Shown one piece after another: positions 256 through 62,316 of a stretch of DNA of 64,000 bases. Source of the stretch: an uncultured Gammaproteobacteria bacterium (GTDB taxonomy: Bacteria > Patescibacteriota > Microgenomatia > Levybacterales > GWA1-39-11); contig CAYRKM010000001.1 in the NCBI GenBank assembly GCA_964425075.1, positions 459,060-523,059 of the forward strand, read 5' to 3'. Made by a program: the position numbers and the translations under genes. Under the pieces are notes generated by a model. The model ran no database searches and was not told the DNA's origin. It was given only the letters and a program-made list of their open reading frames with translations. Positions within the stretch are counted from its first letter, which is position 1. The number at the start of each line of letters is the position of its first letter.

Positions 256-990
256 TTGAAAATAAATTATTTATTTTGTATTATGAATTTAATGGATGAA
301 GTTGATACAGGAACATTTGGTCGGGATTCTGCGGATGGGGTCGAACACCAAGGTCAAGAGAGAGGAGAAGCGGGAGCTGAAAGTGGAAATGTCTTCGGAA
401 AATTAGTTGAAGCACAACAAGCTCTTAAAGAAGCTAAAAAAGGAGTGCTAGATGGAGTTAATGGAATTACGGGAGACGCTAATGAATTTGCACGATTAAT
501 ACATGATAAACTTCCAGTTAGAAGTGAGATGCCTGGGTTTTATGAGGAAAGAAGTGGAGTTTTGGTTGCACCAAATGGACAGGAAATCAATGTGGGTACC
601 AGAAGGATTCTTGAACGCGATTCCAGACCTGAGTCCCTTACCCCGGAATATGTGACATTTCGAGCGAAGGATGGTATTGGCCGAATAGTTGTTAATACAG
701 GAGAACCTTCGAGGAGAGAAATCGTTTTGTTAGATGGTGATTCGTCAAGATCACCTGTTTTGGCAGAAGTTGGCGTTGAGGAAACAACAATTCGTGGTAG
801 GGTTTCTCGCGAAATTGTGGCTAGTAGTGAAAGTCATTTTGATGGCGATTTATTAGGTTTGGCGAGACAAAAGTTAGAGTATGCTTTGGAGCATGCGGGT
901 GAGCTTAAGTTAAAACCGAAAGATGTTCCTGCTCAAGCTGCAGTTGTCGAAGCTCCTGTTGTTGAGGTTCCGCCTGCTCCTGAACTTTAG
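256..990 (+). CDS. hypothetical protein (member of a local 3-paralog family with 5092..5715 and 9168..9701)
   Basis: 244-aa ORF with moderately elevated GC (~47%). By eye it shares ordered motif blocks (MPG-x-VL-PNG, G-x-R-[IV]-V-x6-L-DG) with the 9168 ORF. No recognisable domain. Confidence 0.45.
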   Translation: MKINYLFCIMNLMDEVDTGTFGRDSADGVEHQGQERGEAGAESGNVFGKLVEAQQALKEAKKGVLDGVNGITGDANEFARLIHDKLPVRSEMPGFYEERSGVLVAPNGQEINVGTRRILERDSRPESLTPEYVTFRAKDGIGRIVVNTGEPSRREIVLLDGDSSRSPVLAEVGVEETTIRGRVSREIVASSESHFDGDLLGLARQKLEYALEHAGELKLKPKDVPAQAAVVEAPVVEVPPAPEL

Positions 991-3418: not shown

Positions 3419-4948
3419 ATGATTGTAATTATAGACTTTGGCTCCCAAACAACACATCTAATCGCAAGAAGGATAAAGGATCTCGGTGTTCCTGTGAATA
3501 TTATTCCTCCTCAAAAAACCCGCTCAGTTTTTCTCCAAGAACCATCAGGAATTATTCTCTCAGGTGGACCGGCCTCTGTATATGAAAATGGAGCACCAAG
3601 TATCGATCCGTCTATTTTTTCATTAGGAATACCGGTTCTTGGAATTTGTTATGGCTTACAACTCATGGCGCAGCTTAATGGAGGAAAAGTGGTTCCGGGG
3701 CGCAAAGAATACGGTCCGGCAACAGTTAGCTTAACAACAAAATCAGACGGCGTGATGTTTGCAAAAAATCTACCTAGCTCTTTTACAGTTTGGATGAGTC
3801 ATGGGGATGAAATAGTAAAAATGCCGATAGGCATGAAAACGCTTGGTAAAACTCCTCATATGAAGTTTGCAATGGTGGGGGATGTGAAGCGAAAAATGTA
3901 TGGACTGCAATTTCACCCGGAGGTAGAACACACTGAATTTGGGATAGAAATTCTAAGAAATTTTTTGGCAGTTTGCAATATAAAAACAGGTTCCCAAACC
4001 ATTTCTCCTTCTCTTCTTGTAAAAAACATTCAAGAAATTGTTGGAGAAAATTATGTAATCGGCGCGGTTTCTGGAGGAGTTGATTCAACTGTTGCTGCTG
4101 TTCTTACCGCAAAGGCAATAGGAGAAAGATTTTTCCCAATTTATGTAGACAACGGACTCATGCGGCCAGACGCTAGGGAGCATGTAGAGAAAATATTTGA
4201 GCATATTGGAATAAAACCAGTGATTGCTGAGGTAAAAGGTGAATTATTGGTTTATCTAAAAGGAGTAACTGATAGTGAGGAAAAAAGAAAAATTATTGGA
4301 AGGCATTATATTCAAGTTTTTGAAAGAGAAATGGAAAAGCTTGAAAAGCGTGGAATTCATCCGCAATTTCTAATGCAAGGGACAATTTATAGTGATGTAA
4401 TTGAGAGTAAAGGGACTAAGCATTCAGCCAATATAAAGTCACACCACAACGTAGGAGGTCTTCCAAAACACATGAAATTGAAATTACTTGAGCCAGTTAG
4501 AGAATTTTATAAAGACGAAGTACGTTCCCTTGGGGAAAAACTTGAGCTTCCAAAATCGTTTGTCCAGAAACAACCTTTTCCCGGACCTGGGTATGCTATA
4601 CGAATAAGAGGCGAAGTTACTCCAAAAAGGCTTGCTATGGAAGAACAGGCGGATACAATTGTCATGGAAGAACTTAAAAAAGCAAAGTTATTGGACAAAA
4701 TATTTATTTCATTTCCGGTGTTAACAGATAGCTATTCGACTGCGGTAAAGGGGGATGGGAGAAGTTTTTCAGAAGTTGTGGCATTAAGAATAGTAGAGTC
4801 AAAAGATGTTATGACTTCTACCTGGGCAAAATTACCGTATGAAGTGTTACAGAGAATGTCGTCTAGAATTGTTAACGAAGTGCCACATGTTTCCCGCGTT
4901 GTGTATGACATTTCCACCAAACCCCCAGCAACGATGGAGTGGGAGTGA
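3419..4948 (+). CDS. guaA: GMP synthase (glutamine-hydrolysing)
   Basis: 509 aa. N-terminal class-I glutamine amidotransferase domain (GICYG), PP-loop SGGVDSTV and a C-terminal GMP synthase dimerisation domain. Confidence 0.92.
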   Translation: MIVIIDFGSQTTHLIARRIKDLGVPVNIIPPQKTRSVFLQEPSGIILSGGPASVYENGAPSIDPSIFSLGIPVLGICYGLQLMAQLNGGKVVPGRKEYGPATVSLTTKSDGVMFAKNLPSSFTVWMSHGDEIVKMPIGMKTLGKTPHMKFAMVGDVKRKMYGLQFHPEVEHTEFGIEILRNFLAVCNIKTGSQTISPSLLVKNIQEIVGENYVIGAVSGGVDSTVAAVLTAKAIGERFFPIYVDNGLMRPDAREHVEKIFEHIGIKPVIAEVKGELLVYLKGVTDSEEKRKIIGRHYIQVFEREMEKLEKRGIHPQFLMQGTIYSDVIESKGTKHSANIKSHHNVGGLPKHMKLKLLEPVREFYKDEVRSLGEKLELPKSFVQKQPFPGPGYAIRIRGEVTPKRLAMEEQADTIVMEELKKAKLLDKIFISFPVLTDSYSTAVKGDGRSFSEVVALRIVESKDVMTSTWAKLPYEVLQRMSSRIVNEVPHVSRVVYDISTKPPATMEWE

Positions 4949-4975
4949 TTAGCCTCAAATCTTTATCCTTTGAGC

Positions 4976-5004
4976 TTGACTTTCAAGCTCTTTTATCCTA
5001 TAAT
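4976..5004 (+). promoter_or_regulatory. sigma70-like promoter (TTGACT-17 bp-TATAAT) upstream of the high-GC ORF
   Basis: Consensus -35 TTGACT at 4976..4981, exactly 17-nt spacer, consensus -10 TATAAT at 4999..5004. A GGAGGAGG Shine-Dalgarno and GTG start follow at 5092. Confidence 0.5.
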
Positions 5005-5091
5005 ATGCTTAATTTTCTTGGTGAAGCACAGTTGATACTGTGGGGAGCCAAGGCAAGATTAGCACATTGAGTCTGCGGAGGAGGTCTAGCA

Positions 5092-5715
5092 GTGTCAGAC
5101 ATTTCTGAGTACCGAGTCGTTACTCGGGCGGACGTTGCTGCTGCGCTTCGTGAGAAGTTCGGCACCGACAAGGTGGCCTGGTCTATCGAGCCAGGTTCGG
5201 ATGAAGAGGTAAGCCCAGGGACATGGATTGAGGTATTCGTAGCTGATCCACAAGACGGAGACACACTCATTGGTCGAGGGGACAAACGTTTCTTCGATGC
5301 TCGAGTGCGCCGCCGCCCTGAAGGGTATAACCAGTTGGTTCTTTTCGAGGAGCCACAAATCCCCTTCCCTGAGGATGGGCGACCTAGGGTCGTCGGCTAC
5401 ATCCGAGTCTATGTGAATTTCCACGGTTTCGTGAGAACCCGTCAGGAAAACACACTGATCGGCCAGATGCTGATGATCCATCCGAGCTCGGTCTCAAAGG
5501 CCGAGCCCATTCAGGAAGGGGCGAACCTTATCGCCACCATCTACGTCTACACTAATCCACAACGCCTTGAGGGCGCAGTGGAAGTGGACATTCTTCAAAT
5601 GGAATTCCCAGATGAAGATCCGGACGTGATGAAGGTGAGGGAGCTCGTCGTTCTGGGCGCCGATGGGCGGTCGTTGTCCGTGGCCGCGAAACTCATGGCA
5701 TTCACCAACGCCTAG
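5092..5715 (+). CDS. hypothetical protein encoded in a ~60% GC island (GTG start)
   Basis: 207-aa ORF with GTG start and strong SD. Local GC is about 60% against about 35-40% background, and long antisense ORFs (typical of high GC) are present. Shares motif blocks with the 9168 ORF (A-x-R-x5-GY-x3-L-x-L; G-x-RVV-x2-I-x-Y-x-NF). Confidence 0.5.
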   Translation: MSDISEYRVVTRADVAAALREKFGTDKVAWSIEPGSDEEVSPGTWIEVFVADPQDGDTLIGRGDKRFFDARVRRRPEGYNQLVLFEEPQIPFPEDGRPRVVGYIRVYVNFHGFVRTRQENTLIGQMLMIHPSSVSKAEPIQEGANLIATIYVYTNPQRLEGAVEVDILQMEFPDEDPDVMKVRELVVLGADGRSLSVAAKLMAFTNA

Positions 5716-5778
5716 CCAACCCAGCAGACTTTGGGCGTCTCTGAGCTTTACCGCTCAGGGGCGCCCTCCATTCAATAC

Positions 5779-5807
5779 TTTTCTTTTTACCCTCATTTTG
5801 GTATAAT
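5779..5807 (+). promoter_or_regulatory. putative extended -10 promoter for fusA
   Basis: TGGTATAAT extended -10 at 5799..5807 with a weak -35 (TTTTCT) 17 nt upstream. About 40 nt upstream of the fusA start. Confidence 0.4.
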
Positions 5808-5847
5808 CTTTTGGACCCTTAAAGCGGGTCGTTTTTTTGACTAAAAT

Positions 5848-7977
5848 ATGGCTGGAACATCACCTCAAACAACACTTACAAAAGACAGAAATGTCGCTTT
5901 GGACAAAATCCGCAATTTTGGGATTATTGCTCACATTGATGCGGGTAAAACCACTACTTCTGAGCGCATTCTTTATTACACAGGAAGAACTTATAAAATT
6001 GGAGAAGTTCATGAAGGAGCTGCAACTATGGACTGGATGGACCAGGAGCGTGAGCGTGGTATCACGATCGTTTCAGCTGCTACTACAACTTTCTGGAAAG
6101 ATTATAGATTTAATCTTATTGATACTCCCGGACACGTTGATTTTACCGCTGAAGTTGAGCGTTCTCTTCGTGTTTTGGATGGTGCTATAACTGTTCTTGA
6201 CGCTGAAGAAGGAGTACAAAGTCAGTCCGAAACTGTTTGGCGCCAGGCTGATAAATACAATGTTCCAAGAATTTGTTTTATTAACAAAATGGACAAACTT
6301 GGAGCAGACTACGAGAAGACCATAAAGTCTGTTATAGAAAGACTTGGTACTAATCCAGTAACAATTGGTCTTCCAATTGGAGCTGAAAATGATTTTAAGG
6401 GAATTTATCACGTATTAGATCAAAAGTCCTACATTTGGTCGGGTGAGGAACTTGGAGCAAAGTTTGAGGTAACAGACGAGGTTCCAGATGGAATGACTGA
6501 AATGGTCAAGAAATACCGCGAGCAGCTTATCGAAAAAATTGCAGAAACAGATGACGTCCTTTTGGAAAAATATCTCAATGGGGAAGAAATTGGATATGAT
6601 GAGTTAAAAGCTGCACTTAGAGCTGCAACAATTGCGTATAAAGTAGTACCAGTTTTTGCAGGAACTTCTTTAAGAAACAAAGGCGTGCAACCATTACTTG
6701 ACGCTGTTATTGATTTCTTGCCCTCTCCTTTTGATCTTAAAACTGTAACAGGAACTAACCCAAAAACCGAACAAGAAGAAACAAGAAATCTTACACCGGA
6801 TGATTCATTTACCGGTTTTGCTTTTAAGGTTCAGGTTGACCCACACGTAGGAAAAATTACATATGTACGTATATACTCTGGAAAAATATCTTCAGGTAGT
6901 TATGCATATAATTCAACAAAAGACATAAAAGAGCGCGTTGGAAGACTTCTTTTGATGCATGCAAATCAAAGGGAAGAAATCAAAGAGGCTTATGCCGGTG
7001 AAATTGTCGCAATTGTAGGATTTAAAGATACTGTTACAGGAGACACGCTATGTGATGAGAGTAAGCCAATCATTCTTCAAAAAATTACATTCAGAGACCC
7101 CGTTATTTCTCTTGCGATTGAGCCAAAGACAAAAAGTGACCAAGAAAAATTGGGAGCTGCTATGAAGAGACTCATGGAAGAAGATCCTACTTTTACAGTC
7201 AAAATGAACCATGAGACTGGACAGACAATTATGTCAGGAGTTGGAGAACTTCAGCTTGAGATTATGGTTGAGAGAATGAAAAGAGAAATGGGAGTTGAGG
7301 CAAATGTTGGAGCGCCTCAGGTTGCATATAAAGAAACAATTAAAGGTAAATCAAATGCTGAATTTAAGTACATCAAACAAACCGGAGGACGTGGTCAATA
7401 CGGTCATGTTCTGATTAATATCGAACCAAAAGGCCGTGGTGAAGGATTTGAATTCGTCAATTCCATTAAGGGTGGAGCAATTCCTGCAGAATTTATCCCA
7501 CCTGTTGAAAAAGGTATAAAAGAGGCTATGGAGCGGGGAGTTGCATTCGGATACCCTGTAGTTGATGTAAGAGTTGAGCTATATGATGGAACTTATCATG
7601 ACGTTGACTCTTCTGAAATTGCATTTAAAATTGCAGGATCCCAGGCTTTTCAAAAGGCGGCCAGAACTGCTCAGGTTACCCTTCTAGAGCCTATTATGAA
7701 GGTAGAGGTAACTACACCTGACGAATTTATGGGAGACGTTATAGGTGACCTGTCAGCAAAAAGAGCTCAAATTTCAGGCAGTGAAGAAAGAGGAAACTCA
7801 AGGATCATATTAGCCCTTGTGCCTCTTGCAGAACTATCAGGCTACATTACTACTTTAAGGTCTTTGACTCAAGGACGTGCCAACGCATACATGGAACCTT
7901 CTCATTATGAAGAGGTGCCTGTACAAATCCAAGAGCAGATTAAGGCAAAATCTAACTTCGTACCCAAAGAAGAATAA
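5848..7977 (+). CDS. fusA: translation elongation factor G
   Basis: 709 aa. G1 motif [18 protein letters not shown], and the full EF-G domain layout through domain V. Confidence 0.93.
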
Positions 7978-8232: not shown

Positions 8233-9066
8233 ATGGCAAATAGTTTTCCCCCAGATACCTCTAAGTTCAAACTTATCGTTAGTGATTTTGATGGAACCCT
8301 TGCAGGTCCAGAGCACATTGTTACCCCAAAAGTTGTAGCGGCCGTAAAGCGCTGGATTGATTCGGGTCGACATTTCACTATTGCAACAGGCCGGCAATTT
8401 TTGATGTTGGAGGATGAATGTCAAAAAATGGGGCTTATTGACCCAGTGATTGTCAGAGCAGGTTCAGAAGTTGTGGATCCTACAAATCGTAAAGTTTTAC
8501 ATAGTGAATTAATTGATAAAAATATAGTTAGCCAAGTTTTAGAAATGTTAAATAAAAATGATAAATTTGATTTTAATATTGACGTCGATGACACAATTTA
8601 TACAAATTTTGAATTTAAATATGCATACATATTTCCGAAAATAAAATTTGTTGACATAAGAGAGTTTGAGTTAAAAGATATAGCGAAATTTCACTTAAAA
8701 CCAAAGGATGAGAAAGATAATGGATTAGATGAATTTGTAAAAGAGATAGAGCTAAAGTTTCCTCAGTTGCATGCCATTGCAACCCACAATAAAACTTTTG
8801 GAAAGGGTTGGGATTTAACGTCTACCAGAGCCACAAAGTTATTTGGTATTGTAAAAGTTATGGAGCAGTTAAATATAAAAAGGGAGGAAGTTGTTGGAGT
8901 GGGTGACAGCTACAATGACTTTCCACTTTTAGAAGCCGCAGGATTTAAGGTGGCGATGGGAAATGCTGTTGAAGAAATAAAGGCTGTGGCTGATTTTACA
9001 GTTTCTTCTCACATAGATGATGGCGTCGCTGAATTAATTGATAGATTATTAAAATATAAACAATAA
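8233..9066 (+). CDS. HAD-superfamily hydrolase, Cof-like (HAD-IIB) phosphatase
   Basis: N-terminal DFDGTL, GRQF, and C-terminal GDSYNDFPLLEAAGFKVAMGNA motifs. Confidence 0.75.
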   Translation: MANSFPPDTSKFKLIVSDFDGTLAGPEHIVTPKVVAAVKRWIDSGRHFTIATGRQFLMLEDECQKMGLIDPVIVRAGSEVVDPTNRKVLHSELIDKNIVSQVLEMLNKNDKFDFNIDVDDTIYTNFEFKYAYIFPKIKFVDIREFELKDIAKFHLKPKDEKDNGLDEFVKEIELKFPQLHAIATHNKTFGKGWDLTSTRATKLFGIVKVMEQLNIKREEVVGVGDSYNDFPLLEAAGFKVAMGNAVEEIKAVADFTVSSHIDDGVAELIDRLLKYKQ

Positions 9067-9167: not shown

Positions 9168-9701
9168 ATGAGTAGGTCTATTGAAATTGAAGGATTACAA
9201 GGCTCAGCTAGCGCAGAAGGAGCATCTGTTCATATGCCCGGAACCGTGTTGGAAACAAATGTTTTACCAAATGGCGTAGTAATTGAGCAGTTGGAGCCTA
9301 AGAGAAGGGTTTATTCAGCGGATAGAGGTATGTTTGTGCCAGCAATTAGATATTATGAAGATTCGGGTTATCTCAGCAGACTTACTCTTGTAAGAAAAGG
9401 AAATCACGGTAGAGTTGTGAGTACAATTCCTTATTTTGATGACCAACTTGCTTATGAGACTGCTATTTTAAGTTTTGACGGGTATGAAACCTCTGCAAAT
9501 GGAGAAAGAGTTGTAAGACGGGGCCAAAATGGAATTACCGTTGTTAACTTGTTCAGTATACTTGATGGTAAAGAAATGTCTGATGAGCATGAAAGTGTTG
9601 TTGGTCGTATTGCTGAGGAGATCGGAAAAAATCCTGAACCAGATAGAAGCTTAAGAACTGCTTTGTTTGATGCTCGCAGAGCGCTTGGTATAAGGCGATA
9701 A
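9168..9701 (+). CDS. hypothetical protein (paralog family with 256..990 and 5092..5715)
   Basis: 177-aa ORF with no known domain. Ordered motif similarity to the other two ORFs, judged by eye. Confidence 0.45.
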   Translation: MSRSIEIEGLQGSASAEGASVHMPGTVLETNVLPNGVVIEQLEPKRRVYSADRGMFVPAIRYYEDSGYLSRLTLVRKGNHGRVVSTIPYFDDQLAYETAILSFDGYETSANGERVVRRGQNGITVVNLFSILDGKEMSDEHESVVGRIAEEIGKNPEPDRSLRTALFDARRALGIRR

Positions 9702-9780: not shown

Positions 9781-10974
9781 ATGGCAAGAATAAAAATATC
9801 AGAATTTAAAGCAAAGAAACTATTATATGAGTTTTTGCAAAAACCATATAGTGGAGTTTCTATTGATACTCATGATGAATTTTATGAAGATCTCCTCTCA
9901 AAAATGACTGATGGGAAAAAGTATGTCTTAAAAGTTGATCAGGGCGTAAAACAAAGAAAGAAAAAAGGCCTCGTGAGTTTTGATGTCACAAAAGAAAACG
10001 TAAAAGAGGAAATTGAAAAGTTAAAAGAAAAAGGATTTTCTTATTTTATTTTAGAAGAGTTTCTGGAGCATGAAGGATTTAATGAATTTTATTTTGCAGT
10101 AGAAAGAGTACGGGAAGGGAAGAAAATTCATTTTTCAACAAAAGGCGGAATTGATATTGAGGAAAATAAGGAAAGTATCAAAACTTTTATTTATCAGAAC
10201 GGAGAACAACTTGAGGAAATTTCAAATGACTTTGGATTAGAGAAAGAAACACTAGAAAGTATTCTTGATGCTTTTGATGATTATTATTTCTCATTTCTTG
10301 AGATTAACCCTCTTGTTGTAAAAAATAAGGAATTTTACTTTTTAGATACTGCAGTAGAAGTAGATAGTGAAGCCGAGTTTTTTGTAAGTGACGCATGGAA
10401 TAAAGATGACTTTCGTGAGGGAGTAAGGGCTGAAAAAACTGAGGAGGAGCGGGCAATTGAAGAGTTGAACGAAACAAGTTCTTCTGCTTTTAGTTATGAA
10501 ATTCTAAATCCTAATGGGTCAATTTTTTTAATATTGCAGGGAGGAGGAGCAAGTTTAGTTTTGGCTGATGAGATCTATGATAAAGGAATGGGTAAAGAAA
10601 TTGGGAATTTTGGAGAGTATAGTGGTAACCCAAATGCGGAGGAAACATATATTTATGCAAAAAACGTAATTAGTTCATTAATCAAATCTAATTCAACAAG
10701 AAAAGTACTTATATATGGCGGGGGGGTCGCGAACTTTAGTGATATTAGAATAGCATTCATTGGAGTAATTAAAGCACTTGATGAATTTAAAAGCGAATTA
10801 CTGAAGAATAAAGTTAAAGTTTTTGTAAGACGTGGTGGACCCCATCAGGAAGAGGGACTTGCCTTAATGAAGGAATTTTTGGAGAAAGAAAATCTTATTG
10901 GAGAAGTGCATGGTCCAGAATTGGTTTTGACAGATATTGTAGCTCCCGCGCTTGCGCACGTGGGAAATGACTAA
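9781..10974 (+). CDS. aclB: ATP-citrate lyase, ATP-grasp (beta/small) subunit
   Basis: 397 aa. Block-for-block resemblance to the N-terminal part of ATP-citrate lyase as I recall it: MARIKISEFKAKKLLYEF, FLEINPLVV, LNPNG-ILQGGGASLV, NFGEYSGNPN-EETY, IYGGGVANFSDI, VFVRRGGPHQEEGL. Confidence 0.8.
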   Translation: MARIKISEFKAKKLLYEFLQKPYSGVSIDTHDEFYEDLLSKMTDGKKYVLKVDQGVKQRKKKGLVSFDVTKENVKEEIEKLKEKGFSYFILEEFLEHEGFNEFYFAVERVREGKKIHFSTKGGIDIEENKESIKTFIYQNGEQLEEISNDFGLEKETLESILDAFDDYYFSFLEINPLVVKNKEFYFLDTAVEVDSEAEFFVSDAWNKDDFREGVRAEKTEEERAIEELNETSSSAFSYEILNPNGSIFLILQGGGASLVLADEIYDKGMGKEIGNFGEYSGNPNAEETYIYAKNVISSLIKSNSTRKVLIYGGGVANFSDIRIAFIGVIKALDEFKSELLKNKVKVFVRRGGPHQEEGLALMKEFLEKENLIGEVHGPELVLTDIVAPALAHVGND

Positions 10975-11060
10975 ATCCTAATTTCTAATTAATTATGAAA
11001 TTTAGATTTGATTAGAAATTAGAGCTTAGAAATTGTAGCGCTAAAAATAAAAGTTATTTT

Positions 11061-12935
11061 ATGTTAAATATTAACGATCTAAAAACACTTAACCCGCGAA
11101 TTATTTCCATTGGTTCTCATCCGGCAATTATCCAGTCAGTTCTTGATTATGATTATCTAATAGGACGTGAGAAACCAACAGTTGCAGGAATACTTGCAAC
11201 AGGAAGAAAGTTTGAGCGTTACTTTTTTGGTAAAAGGGAAATTCTAATTCCAGTTTTTCAAACATTCAATTCAATTCCTCAAAATACAAAAGAAAAAATT
11301 ACAATGCTATTAAATGTCGCGTCCGGAAGGCGAGTGCTTACATCTACAACTGATGCAATAAATTATTTCGAAAATCTCAAACTCGGAGTCATTTTTGCAG
11401 AAGGAGTTCCTGAAAAACACGCGGTTGAATTGGGTGAATATGCAAGAAACAAAAATGTAACTCTTATTGGTCCATCAAGTGTTGGAATGGTTTTACCACA
11501 AAGTTTTAAGCTCGGTGCTATAGGTGGAATTCAATCAAAGCAGATTGTTTCATCTGGAATTTTATCTAAAGGAGGAGTATGCGTGTTGTCTGCAAGTGGA
11601 GGAATGGTAAATGAAATCATAAATGTAGTAGGACAGACTCAAAATAAGCTTTCTTTTGCTTTGTCATTCGGAGGAGATAGGTTTCCATTTTTAGAGCCAG
11701 TGGACGCCCTAAAAGCGGCAGAGAAAGATGAGAACACTAAAGCTATTGTGTATTATGGAGAATTAGGTGGAGAAGACGAGTATAAATTAGCAGATCTTTT
11801 GAAAGGAAGTCATCTTACAAAACCAGTTATTTGTTATGTCGGAGGAGTTATCTCAGATCTATTTGAAACCCCGCCACAATTCGGTCATGCAAAGGCGATG
11901 GCAGAAACCAGGCAGGAGTCTGCCCGTGCAAAAAGGGACGCGTTAAAAGATGCAGGGGGAATAGTTCCTGAGAGTTTTTCAGAATTTGTTGACGCGATAA
12001 AAGAACTTTCAGATTTCGGTTTTGAGAAATCAAATGGTACCCTTCGAAATTCTCCCCTCAATCAAATTCGGGACAGGCAGGGCAAGCAAGATGAGATAGA
12101 AGAGAATCAAAAGATTTCATCTGTTACAATTAACAATATGGATGATAGAAAACATGCTCTCATTTCATCAAGTATTTCAAAGGATGAAGAGGGGGACGTA
12201 AAAATTCTTGGAGAAGATTTATTGCCTTTTGCAAGAGAGAATTCCTTTGCAAAAATTGCTGCTTCGCTCTTTTTGGGTAAAAAAATTACGTCGATTGAAA
12301 CCGAGGAATTTGTGGATTTTATACTTAAGGTGTCTGTTGATCATGGTCCTTATGTTTCAGGTGCATTAAATACTATAGTTGCTGCTCGCGCTGGGAAAGA
12401 TTTGGTTTCCTCATTGGCTTCAGGACTTTTGACAATTGGTCCACGATTTGGAGGAGCCTTAAATGAAGCTGCAAAAAATTGGTATAAAGGCGTGGTAGAT
12501 GGTAAGAGTGCATATGATTTTGTGGAAGAATTCGCATCAAAAAAGATTTATATTCAAGGGATTGGACACAAAAAATATAGAGTTGATATGCCAGACCCAA
12601 GAGTAGAAGAGATAAAGAAGTTTGCAGACAAACTTGAGAAAAAGAGATTTATAAATTTTGCCCTTCAGGTAGAAAAAATTACAACTGAGAAAAAAGGAAA
12701 CTTGATTTTAAATGTAGATGGAGCAATTGGAGCGGTTTTGCTGGACTTTCTATCTGAAAAAGAAGGATACAGTGACGAAGAGTTGTGGAATTTGATAGAG
12801 GCAGAATTCTTTAATGCACTATTTGTTTTGTCTCGCTCTACTGGTTTTATTGCACATTTCCTAGATCAAAAAAGACTTGATGAAGGACTACTTCGGTTGT
12901 CCGAGGAAGACGTAGCAGATGCAAGCGCACAATAA
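11061..12935 (+). CDS. aclA: ATP-citrate lyase, CoA-binding / citryl-CoA lyase (alpha/large) subunit
   Basis: 624 aa. SucD-like CoA-binding region ([17 protein letters not shown]) and a phospho-His loop QFGHAKA (canonical GHAGA). C-terminal citrate-synthase-like domain: [67 protein letters not shown]. Confidence 0.8.
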   Translation: [624 protein letters not shown]

Positions 12936-16999: not shown

Positions 17000-17980
17000 A
17001 AAGTGTATTTTTAGTGTATTAAATACACTTTTTCTTGTATTAATACATTATAAACACTTAACGACTGAATTTCTCACGCTATAGTTTGGATTAGTAGTTT
17101 TTCAAATATCTTATCTGGTTCCTTCCTGTAATTGTATCGAAAGGCAAATTCATCCGTATACGACTGCAAATACTTCGGTGACACATTTCTATAAACTCCC
17201 CTTAATCCTCGCTTCAAATGAGACCAGAACCCTTCGATATTTTGGGTATATACGTCACCCCTGACGTAATGCTTCTTGTGCATAACGCTGTCGTGTTTGT
17301 AGCCATATTTTGGTAATTTTCTATATGCATACAGCTGATCGGTATAAACCTGAGCAGACTGATCAACATTATTTTTAACGTTACTTATAAGAGTGAAGTC
17401 GCTGGTATCTGCGACGTGTTTTGTTTTTATGCGTCCTCCGCGTTCTACAAATCCCATTACAATTTCTTTTGGATGTTCTTCCCAATTCTGCCACCACACC
17501 TTCTCACGCCAGTATCCTGCACCTCCAATATAGGTTTCATCGATTTCAACTACACCTTTTAGAAGTTCTCCTCCGACGGAATTCATACAGGTCCTTATTT
17601 GTTTTAACATCCTCCACGACGTTTTATATGTAACACCCAATTCTCTTTGAAGCTGCCTCGCAGAAACTCCCGAACGTGTTGCTGACATTACAAAAATGGC
17701 ATAAAACCAATACTCAAGGGGCGTAGAGGATTTGTGAAAGATTGTTCCAGCCAAAGGACTTACTTGGTAACCGCAGCTACATTGATATACCTTACGATTT
17801 TCGACTTTATAAAACTTGGTAATTGCCTTACACCTTTTGCAAAATATCCCATTCTTGTACCGAAGATCAACGTAGAACTGAAGACACGAATCGCTGTCCG
17901 AAAACCTAAGTAAGAAGCTACCAAGCGTAAATGATACGCTTGACACGACTTAATTATATCAAAGTACATCAAAAATTACT
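17000..17980 (-). mobile_element. putative IS1595-family insertion sequence (boundaries approximate)
   Basis: Single transposase ORF flanked by AT-rich sequence, with a palindrome agtgtattaaatacact at ~17010. I could not define terminal inverted repeats by eye. Confidence 0.4.
17074..17946 (-). CDS. IS1595-family transposase (Zn-ribbon + ISXO2-like DDE domain)
   Basis: 290 aa. N-terminal CKRC...CSCG zinc ribbon and DDE_Tnp_IS1595-like core (VVEIDETYIGG). Confidence 0.75.
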   Translation of the reverse strand: MSSVSFTLGSFLLRFSDSDSCLQFYVDLRYKNGIFCKRCKAITKFYKVENRKVYQCSCGYQVSPLAGTIFHKSSTPLEYWFYAIFVMSATRSGVSARQLQRELGVTYKTSWRMLKQIRTCMNSVGGELLKGVVEIDETYIGGAGYWREKVWWQNWEEHPKEIVMGFVERGGRIKTKHVADTSDFTLISNVKNNVDQSAQVYTDQLYAYRKLPKYGYKHDSVMHKKHYVRGDVYTQNIEGFWSHLKRGLRGVYRNVSPKYLQSYTDEFAFRYNYRKEPDKIFEKLLIQTIA

Positions 17981-33072: not shown

Positions 33073-34140
33073 ATGAAAAAGGTTATTGGTATCCTTTTTG
33101 TGGTTTTTTTGATTGCGCTTTGTTATTTCCTCTTTTTGGATAGAAAATCCCCCTTTTCGGATAGAATTTCTACTTTAACAACTAACTCTAATAATTATAT
33201 AAATCCATCCGCAAAAAAAACCTATATCTTTATACCTTATTGGACTTTTTCAGACAGTATTGTCTCTGATGATTTTGACTCATTATTGTATTTTGGAGTG
33301 ATGGCAGACGTGAATGGTATCAATAGAGATGACCCTGGTTTTGAAAAAGTTGCTAGCTTTATGGCTAGTACAAAATCAAATAAAGAAAGGATTTTGAGTA
33401 TAAGGATGACTGATGCATCTATTAATTCTGAGATTATAAAAAATCCGTCTATTCAGGGGAAAATTATTGATGATTCAATTGAAATCGCAAAGGAATATGG
33501 ATTCGACGGAATTCTGGTAGATTTTGAAACATCTGCATTTGGTTTTGAAAATACAACAAAAAATATTAGTGATTTTTATTCTCGTTTTTCTGTCAAAGTG
33601 CACGAAAATAAATTATTGTTTTACACTACACTTTTTGGGGATTCTTATTACAGGGCTCGTGCGTATGACATTAAGCATATAGGAAAAATTTCAGATAAAG
33701 TTTTGGTCATGACGTATGATTTTCATAAGTCGCGTGGTAATCCAGGTCCCAATTTTCCCCTGAGGGGAAATGAAAGCTATGGCTATGATTTGGGGGCATT
33801 AATTAAGGATTACCAAAAAGATATAGACAACAAAAAATTGATTATAGTTTTGGGATATTTTGGATATGATTGGCAGATTGATAAAAACAAGGAAGCTATA
33901 TCTAATGGTGTACCTTTGAGTACAAATAAGATACAACAGGATTTCGTTAATTCTTGTGTATATAAAAAATGTTCATTAAAACGCAATAGTGATAAAGAAC
34001 CTTACATTGAATACATAGATACGGAAGGAAAACCTCACGTTGTATGGTTTGAGGATGAAATTTCAATAAAGGAAAAATTAGTAGAACTTTCTAAAAATGG
34101 AATTAACCAAACGGGTTTTTGGGCATACTCCTATTATTAG
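33073..34140 (+). CDS. glycoside hydrolase family 18-like protein
   Basis: Signal/TM segment, YIFIPYW start and GFDGILVDFE (D-G-x-x-x-D-x-E catalytic-type motif). Confidence 0.5.
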   Translation: MKKVIGILFVVFLIALCYFLFLDRKSPFSDRISTLTTNSNNYINPSAKKTYIFIPYWTFSDSIVSDDFDSLLYFGVMADVNGINRDDPGFEKVASFMASTKSNKERILSIRMTDASINSEIIKNPSIQGKIIDDSIEIAKEYGFDGILVDFETSAFGFENTTKNISDFYSRFSVKVHENKLLFYTTLFGDSYYRARAYDIKHIGKISDKVLVMTYDFHKSRGNPGPNFPLRGNESYGYDLGALIKDYQKDIDNKKLIIVLGYFGYDWQIDKNKEAISNGVPLSTNKIQQDFVNSCVYKKCSLKRNSDKEPYIEYIDTEGKPHVVWFEDEISIKEKLVELSKNGINQTGFWAYSYY

Positions 34141-34179
34141 TCTTTAAATTTCAAGATTAACTTTCAGAGAAGATTGTTA

Positions 34180-34215
34180 GTGTAGTGTGCCGGAGAGGGG
34201 AATTCCCCCTCCGGC
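34180..34215. terminator. near-perfect palindromic hairpin between convergent genes
   Basis: gtgccggagagggg-aatt-ccccctccggcac, lying between the stop codons of the 33073 (+) and 34246 (-) genes. Confidence 0.45.
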
Positions 34216-34245
34216 ACAAGATTGTCATCCTGGATTGATCGGTTC

Positions 34246-34965
34246 CTACCGCTTGTTGCCCGTGATTACCCTGGCTCCCGCAACTACCGTCACAGTGGCA
34301 AGAACGAAGAGTAGGGCAACCGCCATGTTCCCGCCCTGATCAGTTGTTCCGGCATTCCCCGTTTTGGGGGGAGCCGGCGTCACCGAAGCCTTCGGCTGCG
34401 GTTGGGTCGTACCCGTTGGCGACGTAATGGTTGGTGAGGGCGTTGCCCCCGTTCCAATCACTACAGTCGCTGTTGGCGTTCCCGTCCGAGTTGGCGTCGC
34501 GGTCGGAGTAGAGGTCGGAGTCGACGTTGGTGTCGAAGTCGGCGTGCTCGTTGGCGTCGCCGTGGGCGTTACAGAAACCACTACCACATCGATGTGGCTG
34601 ATTTCTTGACACTCGCTGCCCGAGAGCAGGCGCGTCACCGTAACTACTTGTGTTCCGATTCCCTCGACCTTGTAGCACCCGTTCTCATAGATGCCGTTTC
34701 CGAGCACGTTGGAATGCTGATTGCCTCCGAACATGCTCGAGCCTGACTTGATGCAGACGCCGCTCACGGTGTTACCGGTCCCGGCATCGTACGTGGCGAC
34801 CGGGTCGCCCTCAATACTCCCAACCACTCCTGTGGTTGTGCCTAGACATGTTGCGGGACTGCCTTGACCGTCGGCCAGGGCAGGCCCTGTTGCCGAGATG
34901 GTAACGTATGCTACCACAGCAGCTACGGCCATGATGGCCAATGCTATGGCAAGGAACTTGTTCAC
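34246..34965 (-). CDS. secreted Cys-containing protein with PT repeats and a C-terminal sorting-signal-like tail, in a ~60% GC island
   Basis: 239 aa with GTG start preceded by GAAGGGAG. Signal peptide, (TPTS)n linker, and a C-terminal PPKTG + hydrophobic helix + RVITGNKR. Local GC is about 60%. Confidence 0.5.
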   Translation of the reverse strand: MNKFLAIALAIMAVAAVVAYVTISATGPALADGQGSPATCLGTTTGVVGSIEGDPVATYDAGTGNTVSGVCIKSGSSMFGGNQHSNVLGNGIYENGCYKVEGIGTQVVTVTRLLSGSECQEISHIDVVVVSVTPTATPTSTPTSTPTSTPTSTPTATPTRTGTPTATVVIGTGATPSPTITSPTGTTQPQPKASVTPAPPKTGNAGTTDQGGNMAVALLFVLATVTVVAGARVITGNKR

Positions 34966-35363
34966 GCTATCTCCCTTCTCTTTGTTTTAGCGTGGTGTCT
35001 ACTTGTTGGCTTATACTTTCCTCCAGGATGTCAATGTGCGTTGATTTCGACCTCATATTCCGATTGCATCCCTGCGTTGGGTGGGTGCTCGAAATCCTCG
35101 AGGCGCTTCACGCCTAACTCTGCGGTCCGTCCCTTGAAGCCTCAAGCGGCTTCTAGATAGACCTAGAGTATGGTATGATTGGGGCAATTATATATAAAAA
35201 TAAGCTCAAAGTCAATATTGTGACGCTTAATCTTAGATCTATATAGTGTATGGATAAAAGGTAAAAATTGTCAGGCATTATATCCTGTAGTTTTTGATTG
35301 CTAGCCTCAGGGCAGTTAATTACACAGCCTCAAAACCAGTTTTTATAAAATGTGGTTTATTTT

Positions 35364-50543: not shown

Positions 50544-50990
50544 ATGGATAACCAATACGACGAAAAAATTGTACAAGTAAATAGAGTTTCTAAAAAAACT
50601 AAAGGTGGAAATAAAATGAGATTTTCAGTTCTTGCTGTTGTTGGGGACCGAAATGGTAAAGTTGGTGTAGGTCTCGGAAAATCAGCAGATGTTGCATCAG
50701 CAATTGCAAAGGCTGTAAGTTACGCAAAAGGACATTTCATTACAGTACCTATTGTTAATGGAACAATTCCACAAGAAATTAGAGTAAAAGAAGGGGCTGC
50801 GGAAGTACTATTAAAACCTGCACCAAAAGGTTCAGGAATTATTGCTGGAGGAGCAGTGAGAAGTGTGGTTGAGGCAGCTGGAATTCACAATATATCATCA
50901 AAAATTTTGGGAACATCAAATAAAGGAAGCAATGTTCATGCAACATTTGCAGCGTTATTAGCATTAAGCAAAAGACAGACTGTAAAATAA
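50544..50990 (+). CDS. rpsE: 30S ribosomal protein S5
   Basis: V-RVSKKTKGG--MRFS-L-VVGD-NG-VG-G-GK motif. Confidence 0.9.
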   Translation: MDNQYDEKIVQVNRVSKKTKGGNKMRFSVLAVVGDRNGKVGVGLGKSADVASAIAKAVSYAKGHFITVPIVNGTIPQEIRVKEGAAEVLLKPAPKGSGIIAGGAVRSVVEAAGIHNISSKILGTSNKGSNVHATFAALLALSKRQTVK

Positions 50991-51008
50991 TATTTTTTCT
51001 TTAAAAAT

Positions 51009-51437
51009 ATGGAACTTAACAAAACAACAACCAAAAAACTAAGACGTCTTGGGCGTGGTTCTGGTTCGGGAAGAGGTAAAACTTCCGGACGAGGAACAAA
51101 AGGACAAAAAGCTAGACGAAATATTGCTCTAGGATTTGAAGGAGGAGCACTTCCTCTTATTAAGAGACTTCCTTTCATGCGAGGAAAGGGTCGCAATAAT
51201 TCCTTACAGGCAAAACCTGTTGTTATTAATGTAAAGGTTCTTGATCTTTTGCCTGCAAAAACTGTTGTTGATATTGAAGCATTAATAAAACATAATATAG
51301 TTGTCCCTTCCGAGGCAAAGAAATTTGGGGTAAAAATTCTAGGTGATGGTGAACTTTCAAAAGCACTTACTGTAAAATTACCTGTTACAAAGTCCGCAAG
51401 GAAAAAAATTGAAAAAGCCGGCGGAAGTGTTTCTTAG
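51009..51437 (+). CDS. rplO: 50S ribosomal protein L15
   Basis: LRRLGRGSGSGRGKTSGRG-KGQK-R motif. Follows rpsE directly, so rpmD (L30) is absent. Confidence 0.85.
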   Translation: MELNKTTTKKLRRLGRGSGSGRGKTSGRGTKGQKARRNIALGFEGGALPLIKRLPFMRGKGRNNSLQAKPVVINVKVLDLLPAKTVVDIEALIKHNIVVPSEAKKFGVKILGDGELSKALTVKLPVTKSARKKIEKAGGSVS

Positions 51438-62201: not shown

Positions 62202-62316
62202 GATTAGCGTTTGGTTAATAGCATTTAGCGTTTAGTTACATAAAAAAACGCTACTAATTAAAACTCATTGTAGCAATTTTTTAATTCTTTGCAAGTGGTA
62301 AAAGCAAGAGATATGT

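Follow-up and report, generated by a model that had tools for sequence, protein, structure and literature searches.

A GC-rich single-gene transcription unit upstream of fusA with an apparently long-retained compositional excess

Atypical GC content is routinely interpreted as evidence of recent horizontal transfer, with amelioration serving as the clock. The locus described here raises the question whether a GC-rich gene standing in AT-rich DNA has to be a fresh import. The window, i.e., the whole stretch of DNA analysed, is 64 kb long and has an overall GC content of 36.8%. In 400-nt windows, GC exceeds 48% in only two regions, 4851-5951 (peak GC 0.56, robust z 5.9) and 34051-35251 (peak GC 0.61, z 7.3). 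Maximum-likelihood change points place the first of these, island 1, at 5038..5769, with a GC of 0.563 versus 0.389 in the flanks (log-likelihood ratio 29.7). The original prediction described an island of about 60% GC at roughly 4950-5770; the outlier is there, but its GC is 54-56% (0.537 for 4950-5770 and 0.556 for the 207-aa ORF within it, hereafter ORF207). GC3 of ORF207 (5092..5715) is 0.62 versus a gene median of 0.26 (robust SD 0.04), a deviation of about 8.7 SD, and the next-highest native gene reaches 0.39. Its CAI of 0.37 is the second lowest in the window, after that of island 2, versus 0.54-0.71 for 36 other genes, and its GARP/FYMINK ratio is 1.33 where the host median is 0.71 and the maximum 1.18. 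Formal tests thus single it out by GC, GC3, CAI and GARP/FYMINK, but not by the GC-normalised dinucleotide signature, for which delta* is 122 and 12% of background windows are as high (p 0.12).

As read from its letters, island 1 is a complete single-gene transcription unit on the plus strand, comprising an AT-rich promoter, a 5' stem-loop, a Shine-Dalgarno (SD) sequence, the ORF and a terminator. The predicted sigma-70 promoter TTGACT-N17-TATAAT (4976..5004) agrees with the consensus at 11 of 12 positions and lies in AT-rich DNA outside the GC-rich segment. The exact pattern TTGACT.{17}TATAAT occurs only twice in the 64 kb when both strands are scanned, the second match driving island 2. A 5'UTR follows at 5011..5091, its first position deduced from the -10 box. 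Within it is a nested stem-loop that has conserved GAAGC and GGGG on its flanks and is made up of an outer stem (5017-5022/5047-5052) and an inner hairpin (5027-5042). The putative SD sequence GGAGGAGG at 5077..5084 is located 7 nt 5' of the GTG start of the coding sequence (5092..5715; GC 55.6%, GC3 62%), which encodes a 207-aa Nudix-fold protein of an uncharacterised family. At the right edge of the GC-rich segment, a GC-rich terminator hairpin with a 14-bp stem spans 5733..5766 (MFE -29.3 kcal/mol, z -5.3). The change-point edges compared with this predicted unit indicate that the GC-rich segment is the transcribed region. The promoter, the GTG-initiated ORF with its SD sequence and the long antisense ORFs (128 aa and 95 aa, within island 1) had all been predicted and are confirmed. 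Further to the right, on the same strand, the resident -10 box of the fusA promoter (5802-5807, from a promoter scan) and the fusA leader hairpin GACCC-N7-GGGTC plus T7 run (5814-5838) together form the conserved right flank of a variable slot. No integrase, tRNA, direct repeats, insertion sequence or target-site duplication was found at the borders of island 1; the only tRNA found in the window is at 62315, and the transposase nearest to island 1 is at 17074..17946.

A sharp GC change might also arise if DNA of a GC-rich organism had been joined into an AT-rich contig, a possibility that the original prediction had raised. That change is the only feature in favour of a chimeric assembly. The Logan assembly of run SRR14271372, made with an independent assembler, contains a 2,696-nt contig that is 100% identical to window positions 4399..7094 and covers both junctions. 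In addition, the same order, from an AT-rich promoter through the GC-rich gene to an AT-rich fusA leader, recurs in three other samples (L002, L003 and L004), and promoter, SD sequence and terminator make one coherent unit with the flanks. Chimerism is therefore rejected, and we regard its residual probability as negligible.

ORF207 is a real gene which, judging from codon-level comparison of orthologs, is under strong purifying selection: dN/dS is 0.06-0.10, and identity between orthologs is 0.65-0.90 at codon positions 1 and 2 versus 0.37-0.50 at position 3. This bears on the idea that a structured non-coding RNA occupies the GC-rich stretch and that high GC has produced the ORF by accident. 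The high folding stability (z about -4.6 to -6.3) and the long ORFs on the antisense strand would suit such an RNA. However, conservation tracks codon positions, the protein belongs to a wider family of 45 representatives with a confident predicted fold, and there is neither a conserved RNA structure nor an Rfam match; at gathering and permissive thresholds, the Rfam scan returned only a sub-threshold match to the terminator hairpin (20.8 bits versus a cut-off of 50). The non-coding reading thus has next to no credibility. Alternatively, the GC excess could follow from the amino acids of the protein, or from translational selection if the gene is highly expressed, as the consensus promoter, the SD sequence and a GC1 of 0.65 might suggest. 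However, four-fold degenerate sites, which are independent of the protein sequence, are 56-72% GC in ORF207 copies versus 16-25% in the adjacent fusA, and the highly expressed EF-G and ribosomal-protein genes are AT-rich, with the CAI of ORF207 among the lowest against them. We consider this explanation very improbable.

ORF207 orthologs with 60-83% amino acid identity are located directly upstream of fusA in the three other genomes, L002, L003 and L004. The four orthologous copies have a GC of 0.54-0.59 and a GC3 of 0.62-0.73, their flanks are 34-46% GC, and the adjoining fusA genes have a GC3 of 0.27-0.34. To that extent, ORF207 is partly what the original prediction named as an argument against itself, a conserved gene of the lineage with the same GC in relatives. 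EF-G proteins of these genomes are only 74-75% identical. The promoter core TTTTATCCTATAAT is kept in L002, L003 and L004, and the pairing of the terminator hairpins is kept in L003, L004 and L002 with differing sequences (z -5.9, -7.1 and -2.4, respectively). The window, L003 and L004 also appear to have a common leader fold architecture despite differing stem sequences, a weak signal from three sequences only. The element 5802..5838 of fusA is conserved in L002, L003, L006 and L010, the L004 sequence ending before the hairpin.

Among about 15 billion proteins searched, identity above 50% was found only in five sequences (four 90%-identity clusters) of an AT-rich lineage, and each of the four loci examined lies in an AT-rich contig. 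By comparison, the 90%-identity cluster of EF-G comprises 69 members, and at least 20 contigs of relatives in that same cluster carry DUF1801 or GAPDH in the slot instead, with EF-G 93-94% identical where measured. In the contigs compared, the slot in front of fusA is variable among close relatives, with DUF1801, a GC-rich GAPDH or ORF207 as cargo and extra genes downstream of fusA, and the presence of ORF207 is patchy. The GC-rich GAPDH of relatives keeps a GC3 excess despite near-saturated silent divergence, likewise to ORF207 (see below). A 47-nt flank groups the window with L003, and the ORF groups it with L004; this mismatch hints that the ORF207 cassette may move between lineages.

These data weigh on the simplest account, in which one recent transfer from a high-GC donor has yet to ameliorate. 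The strong outlier signals in composition, codon usage and amino acids, and the absence of the gene from most close relatives, would be expected under it. Yet same-locus orthologs in three genomes show equal GC excess with silent sites near saturation, which makes a single recent import improbable. Of the horizontal acquisition from a high-GC donor that the original prediction proposed, the recency is contradicted by these same-site orthologs, and a foreign origin is likely. The support for it comes from composition, amino-acid usage, codon adaptation and patchy presence. A search for the donor lineage of island 1 found none, the close homologs examined all being in AT-rich contigs, and since no donor was identified, the case for foreign origin is a compositional one.

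As measured in the alignments, silent sites of ORF207 are near saturation (pS among orthologs 0.66-0.80), and a GC excess of about 35 GC3 points is retained at the same locus. Four-fold-site identity between L002 and the other copies is 0.21-0.26, with GC4 of 0.64-0.66 against a host GC4 of 0.22. Under HKY decay, even from an ancestor of 100% GC, the predicted identity is at least 0.42 once GC4 is down at 0.64-0.66. For the deep split, one import that then decayed neutrally is thus rejected, in a test that assumes vertical descent, takes the host equilibrium from 25 genes and uses 61-91 sites per pair. The closest pair, the window and L004, has a four-fold identity of 0.48 and is compatible with neutral decay from an ancestor of 80-90% GC. 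Polarised silent changes give S>W:W>S = 51:24, short of the 4-9:1 expected under neutrality (p 1e-3 to 1e-7); with S>W changes outnumbering the reverse by about 2:1 (p = 0.002 for a test against 1:1), some GC decay is under way. Across the family, all nine full-length genes examined exceed their neighbours in GC3, the hosts ranging from 37% to about 58% GC, and a truncated tenth copy (L016; GC3 0.70) is GC-richer than its contig.

Could high GC instead reflect little time in the host? This would follow if diverged, unsampled GC-rich donors had delivered copies into the same slot repeatedly, independently and fairly recently, each copy coming under the resident type of promoter. The rejection of a single import with neutral decay for the deep split favours such repeated acquisition, as do the true variability of the slot and of the genes downstream of fusA, the weak incongruence between flank and cassette groupings, and the fact that family genes are everywhere GC-richer than their hosts, as for a passenger moving down a GC gradient. 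Transfer among Patescibacteria is also reported to be common (PMC12455944). On the other hand, the five matches above 50% identity belong to an AT-rich lineage and offer no GC-rich donor context, all four copies occupy exactly the same position and have an AT-rich TTTTATCCTATAAT promoter core in common, and the folding excess described below is absent from GC-rich genes in native genomes and hence no obvious donor signature. We consider repeated import possible but rather unlikely; if true, the locus would be an ordinary hot spot for gene insertion.

The GC-rich island genes of this lineage are also all unusually self-complementary. The four orthologs have folding z-scores of -4.9, -5.3, -5.7 and -3.3, island 2 scores -4.9, and GAPDH scores -3.4 and -3.2, versus a mean of -0.36 +/- 1.17 for native genes (n=23) and averages of -0.1 to -1.2 for genes native to contigs of 47-77% GC (Mann-Whitney p = 5e-5 and 1e-7 for the island genes). 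The excess persists under shuffles preserving local composition, GC3 profile or dinucleotides, and the first two of these rule out composition heterogeneity as its cause. Neutral decay was rejected as well, since simulated decay of GC-rich genes gives a mean z of -0.41 and a minimum of -1.84, and a donor signature is unsupported given the values of genes native to 47-77% GC contigs. Within the coding sequence, no conserved RNA structure was detected (RNAalifold consensus -83 versus about -253 kcal/mol, covariation term +0.38), and folding excess is as strong in antisense (z -6.3) as in sense (z -4.6); these two observations together do not demonstrate mRNA-specific selection. Because no specific structure is conserved, the excess of self-complementarity presumably has to be continually regenerated.

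The second GC-rich region, which the original prediction placed at 34150..35160 as a similar island, is confirmed at 34180..35153 by change points (GC 0.580 versus 0.335), but the protein that it encodes is unrelated to ORF207. Island 2 as a whole (34180..35215, minus strand) consists of a promoter, 5'UTR, coding sequence and terminator. Its promoter at 35187-35215 is the other exact TTGACT.{17}TATAAT match, followed by a GC-rich 5'UTR of about 215 nt, a 239-aa coding sequence (34246-34965) with a predicted signal peptide, a TPTS linker and a PKTG motif plus TM segment and basic tail, and a terminator hairpin at 34187-34217. Unlike island 1, it is an outlier in GC-normalised dinucleotide signature, and its CAI is the lowest in the window. 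Its homologs match the composition of their own genomes, which are 47-77% GC, and a sortase gene adjoins the homolog in two of the four native loci examined; island 2 was not found as a conserved island in relatives.

In our preferred reading, in which our confidence stands about even, island 1 is a cassette of foreign composition that has long been resident and is no fresh import. An ancestor of the AT-rich, probably Patescibacteria-like lineage would have acquired the gene from a GC-richer genome, and the gene would have landed in the variable slot ahead of fusA, where a consensus promoter and SD sequence may compensate for its poor codon match. GC would then outlast near-saturation because silent sites of ORF207 evolve non-neutrally, and what slows amelioration is most likely a constraint tied to structure, possibly in the form of selection for compact, nuclease-resistant transcripts or of hairpin-templated mutation or repair. 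More tentatively, ORF207, the GC-rich GAPDH and the island 2 surface protein may form a class of non-ameliorating islands, whose silent sites are held off host composition by a structure-linked renewal of self-complementarity; we hold this extension to be speculative. Candidates for the renewing process are selection favouring compact, long-lived transcripts that start at consensus promoters, and hairpin-templated mutation or repair. For an organism with a small genome, selection on folding strong enough to keep GC3 35 points above the host value would be out of the ordinary. If such a class of islands exists, high GC would be a maintained state and no clock of recent transfer. If GC retention is active, composition-based detection and dating of transfers in small AT-rich genomes would need revision, and the linked self-complementarity would point to an unrecognised constraint on silent sites.

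The ORF207 protein itself is set apart from known families. The proposed paralogy with the ORFs at 256..990 and 9168..9701 did not hold (BLASTP E 5.4 and 5.2; hhalign probability 0.06% and 0.13%), and these two ORFs match each other with a BLASTP E of 1.6. For profile, motif and structure work, a 34-sequence family alignment was used; with it, the AlphaFold2 model reaches pLDDT 90.8, versus an unusable pLDDT of 35 with four sequences. The model confidently predicts a Nudix alpha/beta/alpha fold. The top Foldseek matches are Nudix NDP-sugar hydrolases (best E 2e-5), with about 165-175 aligned residues, probability 1.0, E 2e-5 to 5e-4 and TM 0.42-0.55. The fold is common to NudK/YffH, the E. coli GDP-mannose hydrolase (3o52), and to ADP-ribose pyrophosphatases 1viu, 1v8l and 5i8u, which are also of similar size (about 180-200 aa). 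By contrast, sequence identity to these hydrolases is 7-14%, and a regular-expression search found the Nudix box GX5EX7REUXEEXGU in none of the 34 family members, nor its relaxed form E-x7-RE-x2-EE (also 0/34); the model has no predicted helix between strands 80-86 and 100-108. No family member has any Pfam match at E<=1, PF00293 and PF03559 included, and the NCBIfam scan of ORF207 and its family and the sequence search of PDB with ORF207 gave no match. The family has its own invariant residues, R62, D64, S133, R158, D191 and R193. Because of the low identity, the missing box, the lack of Pfam matches and these residues, ORF207 is probably not a canonical pyrophosphohydrolase. An anti-phage defence or phage gene was also considered and rejected, as PADLOC, PHROGs and viral contigs contain no match to the family.

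A further comparison is with PF03559 (Hexose_dehydrat), the NDP-hexose 2,3-dehydratase of EvaA type, a Nudix-fold enzyme of deoxysugar pathways. In hhalign, the ORF207 family matches a single PF03559 protein with a probability of 61% and E of 8e-5, over only 30 columns (about 15% of the protein), at the motif I-x-R-x-D-G-[RK]-F-F...G-[WY]-x-Q-P. In L021, one gene (about 700 nt) separates the family gene from a PF03559 gene, whose product scores 67.6 bits against PF03559; that gene is also GC3-elevated (0.80 versus 0.46-0.58). More broadly, rml (dTDP-sugar) genes adjoin the family gene in four of the seven distant members examined (L018, L019, L021 and L022). Unlike these, the window copy and its orthologs lie outside dTDP-sugar clusters, between guaA, GAPDH or other genes and fusA, and tblastn with rml genes found nothing in the 64-kb window. 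Based on the fold and on the neighbours of distant relatives, we infer that ORF207 binds or modifies a nucleoside-diphosphate sugar and does not carry out canonical Nudix hydrolysis. Independently of the GC question, an uncharacterised Nudix-fold family lacking the Nudix box is defined, and the dTDP-sugar neighbours of its distant members make it a tractable target for the biochemistry of cell-envelope sugars in uncultured bacteria.

The arrangement resembles the compensatory evolution of codon-mismatched transferred genes that PMC8461475 describes in outline: the two genes with the poorest CAI in the window own its only two exact consensus promoters, and ORF207 has a strong SD sequence in addition, although compensation is here deduced from sequence. 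In Patescibacteria, the GC and tetranucleotide signal of old transfers is expected to fade (PMC12455944). Island 1 shares with acquired islets and with the amelioration model its atypical GC, codon and amino-acid usage, its patchy distribution and its position in a variable slot. That model for horizontally acquired genes reportedly goes back to Lawrence and Ochman in 1997. Unlike acquired islets, island 1 has borders free of integrase, tRNA, direct repeats and insertion sequence, and its GC-rich segment is a transcribed unit with a host-type promoter; unlike in the amelioration model, its GC signal is undecayed at near-saturated silent divergence.

The window has an overall GC content of 36.8% and contains only two regions above 48% GC in 400-nt windows, at 4851-5951 (peak 0.56, robust z 5.9) and 34051-35251 (peak 0.61, z 7.3). 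Change-point fits place the edges of the first, island 1, at 5038..5769 (GC 0.563 versus 0.389) and those of the second, island 2, at 34180..35153 (GC 0.580 versus 0.335). The GC-rich island of the original prediction is confirmed at ORF207, a 207-aa ORF with a GTG start (5092..5715), as are its SD GGAGGAGG (5077-5084), the antisense ORFs of island 1 and the second island; only the figure of ~60% GC was too high, the real value being 54-56%. Codon usage also sets ORF207 apart. Its GC3 is 0.62, against a gene median of 0.26 (robust SD 0.04) and 0.39 in the next-highest native gene; its four-fold sites are 56% GC versus 16% in the adjoining EF-G gene, fusA; and its CAI, with ribosomal-protein genes and EF-G as the reference set, is 0.37 versus 0.54-0.71 in 36 other genes. 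The encoded amino acids likewise follow the GC-rich pattern (GARP/FYMINK 1.33, above the host maximum of 1.18; R/K ratio 2.6 versus 0.5). The GC-normalised dinucleotide signature of island 1 does not deviate from that of the host. An IS1595-family transposase gene (17074-17946, minus strand) ranks third in the window by GC3 (0.39).

The 64 kb contain just two exact copies of the promoter TTGACT-N17-TATAAT, each in front of a GC-rich island: at 4976-5004 (plus strand), as originally described, and at 35187-35215 (minus strand). Both islands turn GC-rich ~27-30 nt after the inferred start of the transcript and remain so up to the terminator hairpin. Codon adaptation is poorer in the two island genes than anywhere else in the window, and we infer that their strong expression signals offset poor decoding, in agreement with a published account of transferred genes (PMC8461475).

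A chimeric assembly, once considered for island 1, is rejected: a 2,696-nt contig in the Logan assembly of SRR14271372 reaches from guaA across the island and into fusA and is identical to window 4399..7094. Homologs of ORF207 form only four 90%-identity clusters among 5.8 billion, and the three outside the window come from independent samples (contigs L004, L003 and L002, with 83%, 76% and 60% amino acid identity, respectively). Between orthologs, identity is 0.65-0.90 at codon positions 1 and 2 versus 0.37-0.50 at position 3, with a dN/dS of 0.06-0.10. ORF207 is thus a protein-coding gene subject to strong purifying selection. The suggested paralogy with the low-GC ORFs at 256..990 and 9168..9701 is rejected; these two ORFs have no match in Pfam or NCBIfam and no detectable relationship to each other (BLASTP E 1.6).

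In L002, L003 and L004, too, ORF207 directly precedes the promoter and leader of fusA, and EF-G of the window and L002 are 74% identical. All copies share the AT-rich promoter core TTTTATCCTATAAT (the L002 promoter, TTGACTTTCGGTATGTTTTTATATATAAT, being near-identical to the exact one), together with a stem-loop at the 5' end and a GC-rich terminator hairpin that stays paired despite sequence change (z -5.3 in the window, -5.9 in L003, -7.1 in L004 and -2.4 in L002). The 5'UTRs share (G/A)UGAAGC, followed by a hairpin of variable sequence and then GGGG(A/U), all inside an outer stem (window 5017-5052; L003 2888-2925; L004 118-160). This element, compared in three sequences with only anecdotal covariation, could act as a 5' stabiliser or as an internal loop that binds protein. 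Between the -10 box and the start codon of fusA there is a further hairpin, GACCC-N7-GGGTC followed by a 7-T run, which is kept in five of six loci (window 5802-5838; L002 2120-2160; L003 3664-3700; L006 5955-5990; L010 5938-5980), L004 ending before it. In L002 it carries one compensatory change (AACCC/GGGTT). The element resembles an intrinsic terminator or attenuator, possibly acting as a regulatory leader of EF-G.

The position upstream of fusA is variable, as 20 contigs from the 90%-identity cluster of the window EF-G (69 members) carry other cargo there, such as a low-GC DUF1801 gene on the opposite strand (L006-L009) or a GC-rich GAPDH gene that abuts fusA (L010, L011). The neighbourhood also varies downstream: in L006 and L010 the ATP-citrate-lyase-like genes come straight after fusA, whereas in the window a HAD hydrolase gene (8233..9066) and the orphan ORF at 9168..9701 separate fusA from these genes (9781..12935; Citrate_bind, Citrate_synt and Ligase_CoA domains). 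The ATP-citrate-lyase-like genes are conserved beside fusA in relatives, in an otherwise small, reduced-looking genome. Elsewhere in the window (50544-51437) the gene for ribosomal protein L15 begins 18 nt downstream of that for S5, without an intervening L30 gene; absence of L30 is known to characterise the Candidate Phyla Radiation. Together with the 835-kb size of the contig and the sortase-type surface proteins that the genome encodes, this arrangement points to a host that is probably Patescibacteria-like. Past the terminator, the 47-nt flank at 5770-5816 is 83% identical to L003 and 65% to L004, the opposite of the grouping of ORF207 itself, in which the window is closer to L004; this conflict weakly hints at a possible exchange of the cassette between lineages.

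Foreign ancestry of island 1 is likely, but the recent acquisition proposed originally is not borne out. Orthologs occupy the same place with the same composition (54-59% GC and GC3 0.62-0.73, in flanks of 34-46% GC), while their silent sites are near-random (pS 0.66-0.80), and a recent single acquisition is rejected on these grounds. Four-fold identity is 0.48 for window-L004, 0.41 for L004-L003, 0.29 for window-L003 and 0.21-0.26 between any copy and L002; the last is the random level, while GC4 of the copies is 0.55-0.66 and that of the host 0.22 (4,084 sites). Under an HKY model with host equilibrium, even a 100% GC ancestor predicts an identity of 0.42-0.48 when GC4 reaches 0.64. Thus, the deep split rejects a single acquisition with neutral amelioration afterwards; for window-L003 this scenario is marginal, and for window-L004 it is not rejected. 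Polarised silent changes from G/C to A/T and the reverse number 51:24, which exceeds 1:1 (p 0.002) and indicates that some decay is under way; the ratio is also below the neutral 4-9:1 (p 1e-3 to 1e-7), a soft result owing to parsimony bias. The main rival explanation, repeated import of ORF207 from unsampled GC-rich donors, appears rather improbable to us. The likeliest reading, to which we give an even chance, is that an old cassette, encoding a Nudix-fold and probably NDP-sugar-binding protein, has been retained at the variable slot, its high GC persisting through a non-neutral process linked to self-complementarity.

Self-complementarity was assessed by comparing gene folding energy with synonymous-codon shuffles that preserve protein and codon usage. 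The folding z is -4.9 for ORF207 of the window, -5.3 (L004), -5.7 (L003) and -3.3 (L002) for its orthologs, -4.9 for the island-2 ORF, and -3.4 (L010) and -3.2 (L002) for GC-rich GAPDH. By comparison, 23 native window genes average -0.36 +/- 1.17 (minimum -3.2), 23 genes of other contigs with 43-77% GC have locus means of -0.1 to -1.2, island-2 homologs in their native hosts score -0.14, +0.31 and -1.52, and distant ORF207 family members -0.5 to -2.8 (Mann-Whitney p = 5e-5 and 1e-7 for group differences). The excess, found in every testable GC-rich island gene of this lineage, persists under 20-codon local, GC3-profile-preserving and dinucleotide-preserving shuffles (the last giving -4.6 for ORF207 and -7.7 for island 2). 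Neutral AT-biased silent decay was rejected as its source, GC-rich genes decayed in simulation to GC3 0.62 having a mean of -0.41 and a minimum of -1.84 (n=16). Since the antisense strand shows an equally strong excess (-6.3) and the four orthologs have no conserved structure (consensus -83 versus ~-253 kcal/mol, covariation term +0.38), the trait is strand-symmetric self-complementarity. It depends on the identity of silent sites, which are nearly randomised between orthologs, and must therefore have been renewed after they diverged; alternatively, each copy is a separate recent import.

GC-rich GAPDH, absent from the window, lies in or beside the same slot (L010 4837-5856; L002 113-1138) and parallels ORF207 in keeping high GC through near-saturated silent divergence. 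The two genes have ~59-60% GC and GC3 of 0.72-0.76 in a genome of ~40% GC; they share 63% amino acid identity and a four-fold identity of 0.40 at GC4 0.69, compared with 0.39 at GC4 0.26 for fusA of the same contigs.

Island 2 differs from island 1 in that its horizontal acquisition is well supported. The encoded protein (239 aa) combines a signal peptide and a TPTS-repeat linker with a PKTG motif, a hydrophobic segment and a basic tail at the C terminus, a layout similar to that of sortase substrates. The exact protein was not found in the collection searched; among its 55 homologs, those examined are compositionally native to genomes of 47-77% GC. A sortase gene adjoins the homolog at two of four loci (L012 and L023, but not L013 and L024), unlike island 2, which has a GH18 gene and a DinB-type polymerase gene beside it. 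The GC-rich 5'UTR from promoter to start codon (34966-35180, minus strand, ~215 nt) has no Rfam match.

When 1.84 billion representatives were scanned in full with an HMM, 45 ORF207 family members of 170-210 aa emerged, with the conserved motifs GRxDGxFF, EEP, PRIVG, PSSxSKGE, NPQRIxG and STDGRSLAALAK and the invariant residues R62, D64, S133, R158, D191 and R193. Of seven distant members placed on contigs, four (L018, L019, L021, L022) adjoin genes of rmlA, B, C or D type. RsmB and glutamate dehydrogenase are encoded near a further two (L017, L020), and the contig ends within the seventh (L016). The family gene has a higher GC3 than its neighbours in each of nine full-length cases, among them the three window-lineage loci that have neighbouring genes; the L004 copy (GC3 0.64), with no neighbouring gene, sits in a 34% GC flank. 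In the other six cases the values are 0.82 versus 0.47-0.55 in L017, 0.63 versus 0.36-0.57 in L018, 0.88 versus 0.68-0.74 in L019, 0.77 versus 0.50-0.58 in L020, 0.77 versus 0.46-0.58 in L021 and 0.78 versus 0.56-0.57 in L022, the neighbour ranges omitting one elevated adjacent gene at three of these six loci; the truncated L016 copy (0.70) is also GC-richer than its contig. The omitted genes are upstream genes without a Pfam match in L017 (4906-5823, 305 aa, GC3 0.66) and L020 (4739-5815, 358 aa, 0.68) and a PF03559 hexose dehydratase gene in L021 (2732-3433, minus strand, 0.80), suggesting that the GC-excess habit may reach associated genes. By sequence, the family has no match in Pfam, NCBIfam, PADLOC, PHROGs, viral contigs or the PDB, and the Nudix box is absent from every member checked. 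A local profile match to NDP-hexose 2,3-dehydratase has 61% probability over 30 columns only. The AlphaFold2 model of the ORF207 product (pLDDT 90.8, 34-sequence alignment) finds its best Foldseek matches (E 2e-5, TM 0.42-0.55) in NDP-sugar hydrolases with a Nudix fold and in ADP-ribose pyrophosphatases, enzymes that are alike in fold but share only 7-14% sequence identity with it.
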